Shown here one piece after another: positions 17,379 through 45,455 of a stretch of 64,000 nucleotides of DNA. A program made the translations under genes and the position numbers. This stretch comes from a virus, in IMG/VR virus record IMGVR_UViG_3300047445_000153, positions 1-64,000 of that record; one strand, given 5' to 3'. Positions within the stretch are counted from its first letter, which is position 1. The number at the start of each line of letters is the position of its first letter. Under the pieces are notes generated by a model that saw only the letters and a program-made list of their open reading frames with translations, had not been told where the DNA came from and did not search any database.

Positions 17379-17836
17379 TCAGCGAAAACATTTACGAAGA
17401 CCTGCTCGCGAGCCTGATGAAGTTCTGCAAGGATTTCGCGGCTGAGATCAATGTCGTCGATGAAGACCCATTCCAGCCGGTGCTTCTCGACGCTCTCAAC
17501 GACTATGAGCAGCTGCCGAAAGGGTCGTTGATTGGCGTGGCGGGCTACACGATCGACATCGACGAACATCTGGTGTCGGTGAAGACGATGATCGGGATTG
17601 GAACCGAGAACGACACGAACACGTTCCGCTTGACGGCGGCGATGGGTAAGCTCGTCAATCGGCTCTTGCCGACGAAGCGTATCGACGTGATCGATTCCGT
17701 GACTGGGGAAGTGCTCGGGGGGATGTCTATCGAATCTGGCGTTCGAGTGATGCCAGCGAGTAATGCAGGCGGACGGACCATGAAGTACATCGCGTTCATG
17801 GCCTCATCCGACGTCACTGTGGCTCTTTCTTCTTGA
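17375..17836 (+). CDS. putative tail terminator
   Basis: 153 aa, acidic, just upstream of tail tube. Confidence 0.5.
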   Translation: MISENIYEDLLASLMKFCKDFAAEINVVDEDPFQPVLLDALNDYEQLPKGSLIGVAGYTIDIDEHLVSVKTMIGIGTENDTNTFRLTAAMGKLVNRLLPTKRIDVIDSVTGEVLGGMSIESGVRVMPASNAGGRTMKYIAFMASSDVTVALSS

Positions 17837-18008
17837 TGCTCTCGATCAACTTCAGATCAGAGCTTGTGCCAACGTCGATCCCAGCTTCAATCAGCAAGAT
17901 CAGCTCGGCGTTCTTCGTGCGCCGGTTGATCTTGGCCCGCACCACAACCTGTTCGTGAACCTCGCGCGGCAGGCGCAACGTCGAAGCCACCATATCGTCC
18001 ATTTCCAT
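17814..18008 (-). CDS. Arc-family ribbon-helix-helix regulator
   Basis: STLRLPREVHEQV..RAKINRRTKNAELILLI Arc pattern; AGGAG RBS. Confidence 0.8.
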   Translation of the reverse strand: MEMDDMVASTLRLPREVHEQVVVRAKINRRTKNAELILLIEAGIDVGTSSDLKLIESIKKKEPQ

Positions 18009-41000: not shown

Positions 41001-42222
41001 TGTCACGGCTGCGATCGCAGCTGCGGGCACGGGTGGTGGCGGCACGACCACGGTGCGGCAGACGGCGCTGCGCAACTGGAAGAAGTCGAACACCAGCAAG
41101 ATCGCGGCGCTCATGGGCCGTGGCCAGTCTGGTTTCGGCCGTGGCCGGATCCTCGGCATCGGCGACTCGTTCACGGCGGGGTTCGCGGGAGCAGGCACGT
41201 CCTTCACGAACGGACGCTCGCAGTCGTTCCTCACGCATCTCGCCCGAGCGATGGCCGCACGGGGCATGAAGGCGACGGCGGATTGGGCGGTGGGTGACGG
41301 CAACTCGGGCGACGTGCCGCTGGTCTACGATCCGCGACTGGTGCTCAGCGGGGGTGCGAGCCTGCTGGATACCTCTTTCAAGTGCCTCGGTGGCAGCGGC
41401 TGGACGATGGATGGTACCGGCAACCGGATCACCTTCACGCCGGTGGACGCGGCAGGCGTGGCGATTGCGTTCGACACGGTCGAAGTGCTGGTGATGTGTA
41501 ACAACAACACCGGGGTGTCGGGCAACTTCGACGTGTTCTACAACGGCAATTTCACCACGCCTGCGCAGACGGTCACCAGCAACGACATCATGGGCGTGAA
41601 GAAGGTCACGCTCACGGTGCCCGGTGCGGCTGGCACGACGGCGAACTCGGTGACGTTCCAGCGCAAGACCAATACGACGTTCATCGCGGCGGTCGGCACG
41701 CGGGTTGCATCCAAACCCGGCATCGAGATCATCAACGCGGGTAGCACGGGCACGCCGCTGGCGACGTATGCAGCAGCCCCCGGCTCTACCAGCGGCTCGG
41801 GTGACTCGAACACGTGGAACACGCGTGCAGCGGCGAACGTGCTGATGGACACGAACGCGGTCAACGTGACGTTTATCAACGGCTGGTACAACGACAAGGA
41901 TGCAGCCTCGACGATCGCCGCCACGCAGACGCAGCTCGCCAACCTGATCACCGCCGCGAAGGCTTGGGGTGATGTGGTCTTCATCGGCTACGCGCCGCTC
42001 GACCCGAGCGACACCACGCTGACCCTCTACAACCAGTGGCAGGATGCGATGTATGCGACGTGTATCGCCGCTGACATCCCGATCATCGATCCGCCCGCAC
42101 TGCTGCCGGTGTATGCAACCGGCGTGTCGTACGGGCTGTACGGTGACTCGCTGCACTTGAACGGTTCCGGCCATGCGCTCATCGCGCGATCCATCCTCGA
42201 AGCTATGAGTGACATCGCGTAA
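38005..42222 (+). CDS. tailspike/fibre with beta-helix depolymerase-like and SGNH esterase domains
   Basis: Ala-rich Stf-like stalk; 6 SPxFTGxPTAPT..ATTAFV repeats; GTDDTTQL and DG-rich beta-helix; GDSFT..NAG..N..DSLH SGNH blocks. Confidence 0.85.
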   Translation: MTTNTGVPTNPDGQTLALVVAPVLSTTPHAASKILYGSGAPSASIGVDGDFYRNLDNDDMYGPKLAGAWPDGYSIRGFQGDPGPAGPAGLLDPEQLDDIETSAEAAAASAAASAQSAVAAAASATAANTSKVAAGTSATNAAASETASNASKVAAAASATAASGFATQAASSNTGATTAATDSAASATAANASKIAAGISETNAAASAVAANTSKVAAGVSEGNAAAAAVAAGIARDEAQTAAQQALQGAAPIVSPAFTGNPTAPTPATSDNDTSVATTAFVKAAIAAAGGGGGGAVSTVAGRTGDILLTIADVTGGAPLASPTFTGDPKAPTPATSDNDTSIATTAFVKAQAYAPLLSPALTGTPTAPTAAAGTSTTQLATTAFVTAAMAAGAGSGDAGVRFVESFPSGGTDDTTQLTNALAWLQAAPRRTLAMQHNKAYTLGHQITVQGASWFRIEVNGATIKAANGMPCQFGDWMLNFVSCTDGVIVDLNLDGNRANRPVVVGLQEAHNIRVWNNCKRITFVRTQSDNGCCDGFYIGADDVTNLSTFPTDIRQIDCGANNSFRNGLSLINSVNFEDYRGAYNNSVGTAPEDGVDCEPNGDVASGDLGNINPRFYHTTANGNSGLGFQIFLDSNHGVKLYDVTASGNISGAVSAFRGGVEIYGITLEGRPGMDTDRGVIDLAGAGAGLSVIKDVVARDYITNDNDLRPIVFVDVDVAGPVTVDNVKTFDCDCPILIANSPVELAQNLEAHGQMGGYTVKLMAGADQSTLKGITAHDGQLGVYVNAPDVSVNDVKLHNLEVTAPLIVFDTGALRPSLDGVELFQDAGVPSGQIGVSFAQAPVRATNIVGHVRTGTAWTPTTLISFAGGTTGSLIANNSPSTVSSGVAPLASPAFTGNPTAPTPATSDNDTSVATTAFVKAAIAAAGTGSGAPLDSPVFTGNPTAPTPATSDNDTSLATTAFVKAQAYAPLASPAFTGNPTAPTPSAGDNDTSVATTAFVTAAIAAAGTGGGGTTTVRQTALRNWKKSNTSKIAALMGRGQSGFGRGRILGIGDSFTAGFAGAGTSFTNGRSQSFLTHLARAMAARGMKATADWAVGDGNSGDVPLVYDPRLVLSGGASLLDTSFKCLGGSGWTMDGTGNRITFTPVDAAGVAIAFDTVEVLVMCNNNTGVSGNFDVFYNGNFTTPAQTVTSNDIMGVKKVTLTVPGAAGTTANSVTFQRKTNTTFIAAVGTRVASKPGIEIINAGSTGTPLATYAAAPGSTSGSGDSNTWNTRAAANVLMDTNAVNVTFINGWYNDKDAASTIAATQTQLANLITAAKAWGDVVFIGYAPLDPSDTTLTLYNQWQDAMYATCIAADIPIIDPPALLPVYATGVSYGLYGDSLHLNGSGHALIARSILEAMSDIA

Positions 42223-42252
42223 CAACCCTGTTGTTTCCGTAGTCGTCCGTTT

Positions 42253-42278
42253 GGGAGCCTTCGTGGCTCCCTTTTTTT
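42253..42278 (+). terminator. intrinsic terminator ending late operon
   Basis: GGGAGCC-ttcgt-GGCTCCC-TTTTTTT. Confidence 0.85.
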
Positions 42279-42288
42279 ATGTATGATG

Positions 42289-42394
42289 AACTAGTCGACG
42301 GCCTAGCTAGCTAGCTAGTTTGTTGTCAAGCGTGCGTCTAATCGGGTCAACCTCCATCCACGGAGTTGAACTCCACCGCTCGATAGTCTATCCT
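42289..42394 (+). promoter_or_regulatory. par promoter/operator region
   Basis: (CTAG)4 at 42303-42318; palindrome GGAGTT-G-AACTCC 42362-42374 overlapping TTGAAC-17-TATCCT. Confidence 0.5.
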
Positions 42395-42427
42395 CCTGCA
42401 ACAATCCATCATAACTAGGAGCGCAGG

Positions 42428-43096
42428 ATGACTGTCGTTGCGTTAGCCGTAGAGAAGGGTGGTGTGGGGAAAAGCAACCTGACGGAATCGTTAGCCGCGC
42501 TGCGCGCTGGGTTGAAGTACCGCGTGGCGATCTTGGACCTAGACCGTCAGGCGTCCACCAGCAAGTGGGGCTTGCGAAGAAAGGACACAGGAGGTCTTCC
42601 TCACGTCCACATAGAGAGGGGGGCGGGTGTCGACGAGGTCGTCGTGCTGGAGGACTTTAGGCGTCGGTTGTCGGACCTGAAGCAAGCGTATCAGGACGTG
42701 TTCATTGATGTCGGGGGGCAGGACAACGGGCTGTTCCGCGAAACGCTTTTGTTGGCGGATAAGGTCGTGGCCCCGTTGGTGCCTGGACCCGCAGAAGCCG
42801 ACACAGTCATCGACCTTGCGAACACGCTGCGCGGCATGAGGCAACGCCCGGACGTCCGCGTGGTGCTGAACATGGTCAGCGGGATGCCGAACCTGTTACG
42901 CGTCATGCAAAGCACACTGGACGACCACAAGGATGTCTTGCCGACCGTTGGCTTCACGATCGGTCGGCGCGTCGCGTTCCCGTACGCGAGCGCGGCAGGG
43001 AAGGGCGTGAGCGAGCTGGCCACCCGCAAGGAAGGGTTTGATCCTGCTGCTGCAAATGATCTGCGCAGCCTTTACTTGGAGATTTTCGGAAAATGA
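42428..43096 (+). CDS. parA: ParA family partition ATPase (type Ib)
   Basis: deviant Walker A KGGVGKS, DLDRQAS, FIDVGG; no N-terminal HTH. Confidence 0.92.
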   Translation: MTVVALAVEKGGVGKSNLTESLAALRAGLKYRVAILDLDRQASTSKWGLRRKDTGGLPHVHIERGAGVDEVVVLEDFRRRLSDLKQAYQDVFIDVGGQDNGLFRETLLLADKVVAPLVPGPAEADTVIDLANTLRGMRQRPDVRVVLNMVSGMPNLLRVMQSTLDDHKDVLPTVGFTIGRRVAFPYASAAGKGVSELATRKEGFDPAAANDLRSLYLEIFGK

Positions 43097-43491
43097 GCAC
43101 AGCCCGATTCAACGCGAAGAGCAAGAAGGAGTTTTCCGATCTCGCGCCCGCAGAGGAGGGCGCACAGGCGGCTCCGGAGACCCCACCCGCTACTCAGCCC
43201 TCAGCAGAGCCTCAGCAGCCCGCTGTGGCCCCTCCTGTGCAGCAGCTGGTGGCAAACCACCCTCCTGCGAAACCGCCTTTGACTGCTCCAGCGTTGCCGC
43301 AGGGCTACGTCAAGAAGCGCGGTGTTCGAGACCGTGGCCAGCCGCTGAACGTGTTGATCCCGTCGCCACTGTTCGACAAGCTCCAGCAGACGGCGCGCGA
43401 CCTGGGCGTCACGCAGAAGGACATCGTGGCCAAGGCGATCGAGAAGGAGCTGAAGCTGATCGAGTTCGAACTGGGGCAACCGGGCGGGTGA
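43093..43491 (+). CDS. ParG-like ribbon-helix-helix partition protein
   Basis: coupled to parA; disordered N-terminus; LNVLIPSPLFDKL..GVTQKDIVAKAIE. Confidence 0.75.
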   Translation: MSTARFNAKSKKEFSDLAPAEEGAQAAPETPPATQPSAEPQQPAVAPPVQQLVANHPPAKPPLTAPALPQGYVKKRGVRDRGQPLNVLIPSPLFDKLQQTARDLGVTQKDIVAKAIEKELKLIEFELGQPGG

Positions 43492-43507
43492 CCGTGGATT
43501 TGCCCTA

Positions 43508-43841
43508 TTGGGAGGATTTCCGGGTTGCGTTAGTTCGGAGGAAATGGTTATCCACAAACGCTCGCGCGGGGTTTGTAGACGTTTGTATACGTTTGTAGGA
43601 GGCTGAGACCCTTCACCAGTAAGGCTTTGCTGGGAGCTATTGGGAGGATTTCCAGACGCATTGGGAGAATTTCCAGACGAACTGGGAGGATTTCCGGGTT
43701 GGTGATTGGGAGGATTTCCAGACGAATGCCTGTTATCCACAGGTTTTGCCCGGAAATCCTCCCAGTGACAACGGATCGGGAGGGATGATAATCTAAACCC
43801 TCCCAGTCATCCGGCCTGCGACAACCCGGAAATCCTCCCAA
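43508..43841. repeat. iteron-type plasmid origin: 7 iterons and 2 DnaA boxes
   Basis: TGGGAG(G/A)ATTTCC direct copies near 43509, 43641, 43662, 43683, 43707; inverted copies near 43752 and 43828; TTATCCACA at 43548 and 43733. Confidence 0.9.
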
Positions 43842-44596
43842 TGAAACTCAAGCACGCGAAGGCTGCGATCGATTTAGTCGATCGGCATGTGACCCTGCAT
43901 AACGACCTTGTCGTTGCCTCGCATGGGCTGAAGACCCTGGCTGAACAGCGCATCGTGAAGTCGTGCGCGGCCAAGATCGACTCCGTGCGGCTTGAGAACA
44001 ATCGATACAAGATCAAGCTAAACGCGAGAGAGTATGCAGAGACCTTCGGGCTGGATATGGCCACCGCCTACGAGCAGCTGAAGAGCGGGTGCACAGAGCT
44101 GACTGAGCGGTGGATCGAGTGGTCGGAGACGGTGGTGAAGGAGAGGGGAGTCATCGCGCGGCATAAGGACCGCTGGGTGAGCGGTGCGACGTACGTCGAC
44201 AAGGCGGGTTGGATCGAGCTGCGGTTCACGCCGGAAGCGACGCCGTTCCTGAACGTGCTCCGTGGCAACCACACGACCTACTTGCTGCGGCAGGCTGCGT
44301 CGTTGCGGTCGATCTACTCATGGCGGCTGCTGGAGCTGCTGATGCAGTTCAAGGACACTGGCTGGCGGCAGATGCCGATCAAGGACTTCCTCCGCGCGAT
44401 GGACGCGAAGCCGAGCCATATGCAGAACTTCAAAGATGCTCGGAGGCAGATCATCGAAGTCGCGGTGAAGGAGTTGCAAGAGAAGGACGGGTGGATGATC
44501 GATTGGGATACCGTCCGGGAGGGGCGGAAGGTTGTAGGTATCAAGTTCAACTTCAAACGTGATCCTCAAGGAAAACTGGCCTTCACAGAGGCCTGA
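43841..44596 (+). CDS. plasmid replication initiator (Rep_3 / RepB family)
   Basis: HNDLVVASH.L..EQRI, RWVS..Y..G.IELRFT, LRSIYSWRLLELL, AVKEL, GRKVVGIKF. Confidence 0.92.
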   Translation: MKLKHAKAAIDLVDRHVTLHNDLVVASHGLKTLAEQRIVKSCAAKIDSVRLENNRYKIKLNAREYAETFGLDMATAYEQLKSGCTELTERWIEWSETVVKERGVIARHKDRWVSGATYVDKAGWIELRFTPEATPFLNVLRGNHTTYLLRQAASLRSIYSWRLLELLMQFKDTGWRQMPIKDFLRAMDAKPSHMQNFKDARRQIIEVAVKELQEKDGWMIDWDTVREGRKVVGIKFNFKRDPQGKLAFTEA

Positions 44597-44599
44597 CTT

Positions 44600-44815
44600 A
44601 TGCCAAAGCTTGCCCAGCTCGCTGGCCAACGATTCGGCCGACTGGTCGCGGTCGAGCGTGTACAACCCGAAATCCCGAGGGCTCAATGGCTCTGCGTGTG
44701 TGACTGCGGCGCCACAACTGTCACGTACGCGGAGAACCTTAAACGTGGCCGGACCAAATCCTGCGGGTGCCTCCCTCGGGAACGCGTGCGGATTTTTAAA
44801 CTTCAAAAGACATGA
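44600..44815 (+). CDS. stand-alone N-terminal domain of phage HNH/AP2-type endonucleases (possibly truncated)
   Basis: LAGQRFGRLVAV..WLCVCDCG..NLKRG.TKSCGC with no nuclease domain. Confidence 0.6.
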   Translation: MPKLAQLAGQRFGRLVAVERVQPEIPRAQWLCVCDCGATTVTYAENLKRGRTKSCGCLPRERVRIFKLQKT

Positions 44816-45165
44816 CCCAGACGTTGCAGGAGATGGAGGCTGAGCTGGCCGCGCTGTACGCGAAGGTACAGGCAGAGAAGACGCGCGTACGTACGACCGC
44901 GCTCGAAGGCATTAAAGCCATGCTGGAGTCGGGCACGCTGACGGCTGACGATCTGCGGGAGCTGCTACCCCCACCCCCGCCTCCTGAGCGTCCCAGGCGG
45001 GACTACAGGAGGCCTCCGAAGTATCGCGACCCTGAGAGCGGCGGCACGTGGACGGGGCAGGGGGCCGAGCCGAACTGGATCAAGGGCAAGAACCGAGACC
45101 AGTTCTTGATCGATCAGCGCTCCTCGATCTCGACCAGCTCGGGCTCGAACGTGAAGGGCTCGTAG
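44812..45165 (+). CDS. hns: H-NS family nucleoid-associated protein
   Basis: short coiled coil plus PPKYRDPESGGTWTGQGAEPNWI. Confidence 0.88.
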   Translation: MTQTLQEMEAELAALYAKVQAEKTRVRTTALEGIKAMLESGTLTADDLRELLPPPPPPERPRRDYRRPPKYRDPESGGTWTGQGAEPNWIKGKNRDQFLIDQRSSISTSSGSNVKGS

Positions 45166-45455
45166 GTCACCAGTGTGATGCCCCATGAGCCATTGAGTGG
45201 TGGCCACCCTTCGACCTCGCCGCTGTTGAAGCGCTGCTCGGGGTCGAAGTGTTCAGCGCTCTCGGCCATGAACGTTGCGCAGAACATCTTCAGCACAGCG
45301 TCGAGGGGCGTGTCGTGCCTCAGCCGGTACTCGTGACCACCCCAGAAACTATTGATTTCGAGCAGCTTGTCTTCGGTCAAGATCTCGTGGTCGATCTCGA
45401 CGGTCATCTGGTAGCCGTCAGCGTAGATCAGGTTGTAGCGCTTTTTATTAGTCAT
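45114..45455 (-). CDS. phage protein, DUF2528-like
   Basis: VEIDH..EINSFW..RL..AVLKM..EGWP..GI pattern. Confidence 0.6.
   Translation of the reverse strand: MTNKKRYNLIYADGYQMTVEIDHEILTEDKLLEINSFWGGHEYRLRHDTPLDAVLKMFCATFMAESAEHFDPEQRFNSGEVEGWPPLNGSWGITLVTYEPFTFEPELVEIEER

Follow-up and report, generated by a model that had tools for sequence, protein, structure and literature searches.

The phage-plasmid lifestyle is already known, and in phage P1 an iteron-controlled replicon with partition functions serves lysogeny alongside a separate lytic replication and many dispersed repressor operators. Partition of type Ib is typified by ParF/ParG/parH of TP228, in which a small ParA lacking a helix-turn-helix (HTH) domain is followed by a ribbon-helix-helix (RHH) adaptor with a flexible N-terminal tail, and tetramer boxes lie upstream. 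Cluster A mycobacteriophages encode their own DNA Pol I. Here, we analyze a block at 42.2-45.2 kb of IMG/VR virus record IMGVR_UViG_3300047445_000153 (G000; the other IMG/VR records compared are labelled G001-G018), in which a partition gene pair, an iteron origin and a Rep_3 initiator gene lie inside the genome of a siphovirus related to Achromobacter phage JWF. The record is a single contig of 81,905 bp, traced by sequencing-run look-up to rhizosphere metagenomes, and its first 64 kb are referred to as the window. Earlier reports describe an integration cassette missing from ~20% of cluster A mycobacteriophages and replaced colinearly by parABS, and five cluster A phages that combine parABS with a RepA necessary and sufficient for replication (Wetzel et al. 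2020, PMC7157519). They also describe a plasmid lysogen of Burkholderia phage KS14, demonstrated by plasmid preparation (Lynch et al. 2010, PMC3091744), and conversion among phage-plasmids, integrative prophages, and plasmids (Pfeifer and Rocha, PMC10879196). The carrier phage group is what is new here; we found no JWF-group phage-plasmids in the literature, a weak claim since the literature was covered only in part.

We consider it probable that this block serves a temperate JWF-group siphovirus as its lysogeny module, with a plasmid-type cartridge instead of an integrase, and that G000 is most likely kept in its host as a plasmid of low copy number. This predicted phage-plasmid nature is well supported by the anatomy of the block and by comparison with related genomes. 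A sequence-only reading of the window had placed parA, an RHH partner, an iteron origin with DnaA boxes, a Rep_3 initiator, and H-NS in this block, and family matches and repeat statistics recovered every one of them at its predicted position. The block occupies a slot that lies between a 1405-aa tail-fibre gene, whose stop is at 42222, and a leftward DUF2528 gene, whose 3' end is at 45114. The features of the block along the window are as follows.

42253-42279, + strand: intrinsic-terminator-like hairpin (7-pair stem with 6 GC) and T-run (T7) after the tail-fibre gene, at the left slot edge
42291-42318, no strand assigned: five CTAG tetramers (tetramer count), which the RHH protein may bind as a centromere or an operator
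42428-43096, + strand: parA, 222 aa (Pfam, PHROG, NCBIfam)
43093-43491, + strand: gene of the RHH-like partner, 132 aa (weak family matches, structure model)
43507-43529, + strand: isolated iteron directly 3' of the RHH gene stop (repeat search)
43548-43556, + strand: DnaA box 1, TTATCCACA (exact match)
43571-43600, + strand: three tandem 10-bp GTTTGTA repeats (sequence reading), candidate DNA-unwinding element
43639-43727, + strand: four tandem iterons, start-to-start distances 21, 21, and 24 bp (repeat search)
43733-43741, + strand: DnaA box 2, TTATCCACA (exact match)
43749-43842, no strand assigned: two inverted iterons (43749-43766 and 43825-43842) around a promoter-like site (repeat search)
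43841-44596, + strand: rep, Rep_3 initiator with WH1 and WH2 domains, 251 aa (Pfam, PHROG, NCBIfam, PDB)
44600-44815, + strand: HNH-like open reading frame (ORF), 71 aa (PHROG)
44812-45165, + strand: H-NS gene, 117 aa, the last gene in the slot (Pfam, PHROG)

The 3' end of the H-NS gene extends 52 nt into the conserved DUF2528 gene, and the GC content of the cassette, overall and at third codon positions (GC3), is like that of the remainder of the genome.

As read from its sequence, the origin region of ~350 bp is a textbook iteron theta replicon in layout. The iteron core TGGGAGGATTTCC (13 nt, at most 2 mismatches) was identified in 7 copies in the window, five direct and two inverted, all inside 43509-43840; the chance expectation is 1.02 copies, and none of 100 shuffles reached 7. 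Perfect DnaA boxes numbered 2 in the window (expected 0.06), at 43548 and 43733, both in the origin. Between the first box and the tandem iterons, the segment 43568-43600 is relatively AT-rich (GC 0.42 vs 0.61 for the genome), and the GTTTGTA repeats there are a candidate DNA-unwinding element that may open during initiation. A promoter-like sequence, GTGACA-16-GATAAT at 43765-43792, lies between the inverted iterons, the second of which overlaps the rep ATG, and the inverted pair is a candidate operator for rep autorepression. An Rfam search returned a chance miRNA match at the inverted iterons and nothing else.

The Rep protein matched Rep3_N (E value 1e-35) and Rep3_C (8e-15) in Pfam, and its best matches in PDB included 1hkq (4.6e-13), 1rep (9e-9), 2z9o, and 2nra ("PI protein," 8.5e-5), entries that we take to represent pPS10 RepA, F RepE, and R6K pi. 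Plasmid initiators annotated in Caballeronia, Xylella, Burkholderia, Ralstonia, and Pseudomonas share 44-48% identity with it, and gp37 of Burkholderia phage KS14 shares 43.7%. The 71-aa ORF that follows matched the N-terminal zinc-ribbon part of phrog_374 (HNH endonuclease, 4.3e-19) and nothing in Pfam or NCBIfam; because only profile positions 192-255 of 617 are matched, it is probably an HNH remnant.

The parA product is a small deviant-Walker-A ATPase with KGGVGKS near its N-terminus and no N-terminal HTH, and by sequence it is like type Ib partition ATPases. Family matches comprised CbiA (7e-11), AAA_31 (1e-10), and MipZ (1e-7) in Pfam and phrog_164, "ParA-like partition protein" (8e-27), and weak PDB matches over residues 2-166 were obtained for ParF (4dzz, 1.3e-4) and ParA (5u1g, 1.5e-4). 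The start of the partner gene overlaps the parA stop. Its product, a putative centromere-binding adaptor, combines a Pro/Ala/Gln-rich N-terminal tail with a C-terminal RHH-like domain; a low-confidence single-sequence AlphaFold model (mean predicted local confidence, pLDDT, 61) places helices at residues 92-103 and 108-126, the partner protein of G004 is 69% identical across the C-terminal 45%, and no similarity to ParG was detected. The tetramer CTAG is avoided in the 81.9-kb genome (43 copies vs ~292 expected), and the five-copy cluster 5' of parA is the sole site in the genome with at least 3 CTAG inside 60 bp. In G004, 5 of 14 CTAG copies lie at the equivalent site upstream of its own parA, the sequence from these boxes to the parA start codon is alike in the 2 genomes, and a hairpin nearly identical to that at 42253-42279 also precedes parA. 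These CTAG boxes may be the binding site of the RHH protein and are our candidate for the centromere.

Related genomes were collected by a capsid-protein scan of IMG/VR, and the 15 loci found belong to 12 different longer records (G001-G012). One of these, G001, is a 41-kb fragment that does not extend to the slot; the other 11 (G002-G012, of which G010 is JWF) are near-complete relatives. A tyrosine integrase was identified in 7 of them (G002, G003, and G005-G009), and 6 of these 7 are classed as integrated proviruses, with the integrase ~0.6-2.8 kb from one provirus end. The integrase lies near the DUF2528 homologue (0.3-3.6 kb) in 4 of the 7, namely at 0.3 kb in G002, which was assembled with a 127-bp end overlap, and at ~3.4-3.6 kb in G003, G005, and G006; no DUF2528 homologue was found in G007-G009. 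Burkholderia paludis MSh1 also has a capsid homologue (79%), which lies inside a contig of 290 kb. At the same map position, G004 encodes a ParA (42% identical in the six-frame search, 40% by tblastn), an RHH protein, and a Rep_3 protein (41%), with an origin of the same layout built on a co-varying iteron, ATTGGGACATTTTCCGGGTT, and an H-NS gene 5 kb further along in the slot. The closest relative, G012 (86% identity across eight core proteins), harbors in the same place a ParA/winged-helix module that is non-homologous to the G000 cassette: a VirC1-like ParA, a 144-aa protein without assignment, a DnaA box, two 23-bp repeats plus an inverted copy, a 189-aa winged-helix protein that scores above threshold for RepL as well as HTH_Crp_2 in Pfam, and then a small HTH_26 protein. 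No integrase, ParA, or Rep_3 match was obtained in JWF and G011, so that 2 of the 11 slots are empty; in JWF, the late arm finishes at a tail gene that directly abuts the leftward arm, and phage 2-1, the other close named phage, has four hypothetical-protein genes at the slot (37.6-42.0 kb), with no ParA, Rep, or integrase annotated there in either phage. Two further observations concern relatives. A dense TACATACAT/ATGTAT repeat array lies directly upstream of the VirC1-like parA in G012 (L046:8233-8372) and is a candidate centromere, and a 372-aa ParA-like ATPase (AAA_31, 6e-14) adjoins the integrase in the integrated relative G003 (C1:2641-3759, - strand).

Nucleotide homology of G000 to G012, G002, and G003 restarts at 45113-45130 in all three comparisons, and on the left side it ends at 42098 for G012 and near 42.1 kb or earlier for G002 and G003; given these sharp ends, 42428-45165 corresponds almost exactly to the variable block. 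A maximum likelihood tree, rooted on JWF and based on a 5,756-column concatenation of the eight core proteins, recovered ((G000,G012)100,(G002,G003)100)98 with G004 outside, so the two Rep_3-bearing genomes, G000 and G004, are not sisters, and their cassette proteins are only 40-41% identical vs 73.5% for their core proteins. The tree and the diverged cassettes together indicate that slot content has been exchanged repeatedly, and the evidence from these genomes points to an exchangeable lysogeny slot between the tail-fibre gene and the DUF2528 gene. The sequence-only reading had proposed a phage-plasmid formed when a virulent-type siphovirus captured a maintenance cassette and had suggested comparison with the nearest relatives. 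That comparison returned a homologous cassette in G004, another par module in G012, an integrase in 7 of 11 relatives, and neither in JWF and G011. The phage-plasmid gene content therefore stands, whereas the virulent origin does not, since 7 of 11 relatives carry an integrase, 6 of them are proviruses, and the slot is fixed; the evidence points to module exchange at a fixed slot, in a mostly temperate group, as the better description.

The same replicon was also identified on other backbones. Six records (G013-G018) encode a Rep 75-78% identical to that of G000, with 69-77% nucleotide identity in the origin-rep region; four of them, 93-216 kb long, have end repeats, and the other two are linear fragments of smaller size. 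An upstream ParA (41-43%) is present in 5 of the 6, and a JWF-type capsid gene in 0 of 6. The arrangement of 1 + 4 direct and 2 inverted iterons recurs in G013 and G017, and the inverted layout at the rep promoter is common to these 2 records and G004. We identified a phage portal in G013 and two terminase-like genes in G014, and the VirB4 family had no match in the 5 records searched.

The backbone of G000 is that of a tailed phage. Of the named phages, Achromobacter phages JWF (81.5 kb) and 2-1 (82.7 kb) are closest, with ~72% nucleotide identity across the terminase-capsid region and 64-65% amino acid identity in PolA, and more distant backbone relatives include Xylophilus phage Lumi, Caulobacter phage Seuss, and several Acinetobacter phages. 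Homologues in JWF were found, in colinear order, for 56 of 100 crude ORF calls, a denominator that includes some wrong-strand shadows. They cover terminase, portal, major head/capsid, tape measure, tail, and lysis/endolysin genes with no obvious truncation, and by homology to JWF a complete tailed-phage gene set (packaging, head, tail, and lysis) is present. The replisome that the sequence-only reading had attributed to this phage (PolA, primase-helicase, helicase, ligase, nuclease, and SbcCD) is confirmed by homology to annotated JWF genes: primase 69%, PolA 65%, helicase 62%, SbcD 49%, 5'-3' exonuclease 45%, ligase 44%, and SbcC 44%. No tRNA genes were found in the window. JWF-group members were isolated on Achromobacter; Xylophilus and Ralstonia are hosts of more distant relatives. 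In one report, JWF is termed temperate and matches to putative Burkholderia prophage regions are noted (PMC9959647), and another reports an integrase in a distant Ralstonia relative (PMC13197380).

We searched for genes that could govern a lysogeny switch. The sequence-only reading had noted neither an integrase nor a CI-like repressor in the window, and this absence extends to the whole 81,905-bp record, in which the integrase/resolvase families PF00589 and PF00239 and, in six frames, the repressor families PF01381 (HTH_3), PF00717 (S24), and PF13443 (HTH_26) had no match at E ≤ 1. No regulator was identified among 30 early-arm ORFs with Pfam and PHROGs, most early proteins being without family. 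A 17-bp palindrome, AGTGCGAC-N-GTCGCACT (at most 3 mismatches), occurs 7 times in G000, at 740, 2004, 2040, 74493, 74875, 80130, and 80821, in every case in or at the start of the leftward early arm and mostly between genes, and the pair at 2004-2020 and 2040-2056 precedes the first leftward gene by 53-105 bp. Ten copies were counted in the matching region of G012 and none in G004, G002, G003, or JWF, and by sequence the palindromes are a candidate dispersed operator set common to the sister genomes G000 and G012. We also observed an Arc-like RHH gene (17814-18008, - strand; 64 aa, phrog_3178, 1.5e-6) on the opposite strand within the late structural operon, present in all relatives including JWF; its product was considered as the palindrome binder and set aside as unsupported, its predicted strand residues being the same in the palindrome-free G002. 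The early arm additionally encodes an ArdA-type anti-restriction gene (69514-70326, - strand; Pfam, 1.8e-26), which is kept in G002, G003, G004, and G012 and has no JWF homologue, and the early-arm ORF scan also gave a NinX-like gene.

The H-NS protein of the slot matched Histone_HNS (PF00816, 2.6e-11, 45.2 bits) and retains the C-terminal DNA-binding domain, and the early arm holds another H-NS gene (70508-70915, - strand), which encodes a protein 63% identical to the slot copy over the C-terminal 38 residues. PF00816 was present in 3 of 3 par/rep genomes (two copies each in G000 and G004, one in G012) and in 0 of the other 9 near-complete records (the seven with an integrase, JWF, and G011). 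Simple shared ancestry does not account for this pattern because G004 lies outside the clade that holds the integrase-bearing G002 and G003. Plasmid-borne H-NS "stealth" proteins exist, and the distribution fits an episomal lifestyle; with twelve genomes, the tracking of episomal forms by H-NS is a lead, not a result.

From the observed gene content, repeat architecture, slot position, and slot contents of relatives, we infer each functional step of the following scheme. After infection, the DNA would circularize and the lytic arms would be silenced by a regulator. Rep_3 monomers would bind the four tandem iterons; aided by host DnaA on the two boxes to either side, they would melt the neighbouring low-GC repeats and recruit the host replisome, which would replicate the DNA in theta mode at low copy number. 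Dimers of Rep at the inverted iterons around the rep promoter would autorepress rep, pairing of iterons would cap copy number, and ParA with its RHH adaptor, probably acting on the CTAG boxes 5' of parA, would segregate the copies. The H-NS proteins may silence phage genes or spare the host H-NS pool. Upon induction, the phage primase-helicase, PolA, helicase, ligase, and nucleases would take over, and the gene content thus suggests two replication modes. A broader proposal is that persistence in the whole group is set by the slot cartridge, which can be an integrase, one of two par/rep replicons that are unrelated to each other, or absent, so that one recombination could move a phage among integrative, episomal, and apparently virulent lifestyles, and that episomal forms rely for lytic silence on phage H-NS and a non-HTH regulator on the 17-bp palindromes and not on a CI-type repressor. 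We advance this combined proposal tentatively and consider it doubtful as a whole.

Several points weigh against interpreting G000 as a phage-plasmid. The record is a metagenome contig, and contig depth, which is given per contig, yields no copy number. The record, classed as linear in IMG/VR with a listed CheckV completeness of 100%, has no exact terminal repeat and its ends do not overlap. In G012, ~3.3 kb of small leftward genes lie between the homologues of the last and first genes of G000, so a short piece with a gene may be missing between the record ends; the last 33 nt of the record had no match in the viral_contigs and metagenome_contigs collections. ParA scores 90.7 bits in NCBIfam ParA_partition, under the 180-bit equivalog cut-off, and the RHH assignment is weak (Pfam RepB-RCR_reg, 2.6e-5, residues 84-121; NCBIfam PRK13702, 4.6e-5). 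The centromere is a candidate only, and no repressor was found. As a separate observation on genome ends, the first two genes of the JWF record NC_029075 (62-1291) are annotated again at its right end (80137-81366), from which a direct terminal repeat of ~1.4 kb follows for JWF; the G000 record starts colinearly with JWF yet is without a JWF-type terminal repeat.

The sequence-only reading had named chimeric assembly at the cassette borders as a danger to its interpretation, and we compared contigs over 38-50 kb from four runs (X2-X5), none of them the probable source; all runs are 2023 rhizosphere metagenomes and may be one campaign. Contigs of X3 (41912-42800) and X4 (42249-43296) match on the left and a contig of X2 (44744-45412) on the right, so both borders are bridged, without differences, by contigs from outside the probable source. 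Since the record is a metagenome assembly, a plasmid fragment could have been joined to a phage contig, and contigs in other runs do join at 45119 (X5), exactly at the right slot border, and at 43130 (X2, X4), just inside the RHH gene, with unrelated sequence before these points. These loose ends indicate that related elements with other neighbours co-occur in the samples, which fits module exchange in the population; the bridged borders, the homologous cassette at the same position in the separate record G004, and a cassette GC and GC3 matching the genome make a chimera exceedingly improbable. A genuine molecule might still be a defective phage-plasmid that is now a plasmid only and forms no infectious particles. 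The record comes from a total metagenome and not from a virion preparation, and decay of phage-plasmids to plasmids is described by Pfeifer and Rocha (PMC10879196). Set against this are the 56 of 100 crude ORFs with JWF homologues, the structural and lysis genes without obvious truncation, and the 100% CheckV value, and we regard such a decayed element as very unlikely.

Two other readings accept a functional phage and assign the cassette a different role. Rep_3 and its iterons could be a lambda-O-like early lytic initiator for the phage replisome, with ParA and the RHH protein serving regulation, and it is true that G000 has a phage primase-helicase and polymerase and that no recognised origin-binding protein was found elsewhere. 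The replisome is, however, also present in JWF, 2-1, G002, G003, and G005-G009, which have no Rep_3, so lytic growth is independent of it; the cassette moreover takes the place of the integrase of relatives, and the closest relatives of Rep are plasmid initiators, all of which leaves a lytic role highly improbable. A carrier state, or pseudolysogeny, is less remote but still unlikely: there would be no true repressor and no stable immune lysogen, and the replicon and par genes would prevent dilution of an unrepressed or partly silenced genome in slow-growing rhizosphere hosts. The lack of an HTH_3, HTH_26, or S24 repressor in a record where most early proteins have no family agrees with it, and the two H-NS genes could silence leakily. 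However, relatives with the same backbone are stable integrated proviruses in isolate genomes, which implies that this backbone can be repressed, and the dispersed 17-bp palindrome common to G012 resembles an operator set. A temperate phage with a plasmid-type lysogeny module accordingly remains the reading that we prefer.

Compared with phage P1, which has RepA and ParA/ParB of other families, a known C1 repressor, and no known DNA polymerase of its own, G000 combines its replicon with a phage replisome. The replicons of pPS10, F, and R6K are like that of G000 in a WH1-WH2 initiator, about four tandem iterons of ~21-22 bp, one or more DnaA boxes, low-GC repeats, and inverted iterons over the rep promoter; G000 differs in the low identity of its Rep to the solved initiators (E values 5e-13 to 9e-5) and in harboring the replicon within an 82-kb phage. 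Like TP228, G000 has a small HTH-less ParA, then the gene of a small putative RHH-type adaptor with an N-terminal tail, and short tetramer boxes 5' of the operon; the ParF match is weak (1.3e-4), the adaptor shows no detectable ParG similarity, and the CTAG boxes are candidates only. JWF and 2-1 are colinear ~82-kb genomes like G000 but have a slot without annotated ParA, Rep_3, or integrase. The phage-plasmid lifestyle would thus be extended to the JWF group of replisome-encoding Burkholderiales siphoviruses, and virulence of a JWF-group phage cannot be assumed from backbone similarity, the slot needing inspection. The ori-rep unit (~1.1 kb), alone or combined with par, could be developed into a low-copy vector for Burkholderiaceae, and the H-NS association and the missing repressor are testable leads on phage quiescence.

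Among described phage-plasmids, KS14 resembles G000 in its Burkholderiales host, its 251-aa Rep_3-type initiator gp37, and its ParA, and differs in a P2-like myovirus backbone of 32 kb that lacks a replisome of its own, in rep and parA that are not adjacent, and in a serine recombinase (PMC3091744). Cluster A mycobacteriophages are, like G000, temperate siphoviruses with a par/rep cartridge downstream of the virion genes and colinear with the integrase of relatives, an exchange being inferred there as well; they differ in their actinobacterial hosts, in type Ia ParA/ParB with parS, in a RepA unrelated to Rep_3, in a mostly RNA-based origin and the lack of any iterons found, and in a known immunity repressor (PMC7157519). 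With three kinds of lysogeny cartridge in one slot of syntenic genomes, the JWF group would provide a clean Gram-negative counterpart of the cluster A integrase/parABS exchange.

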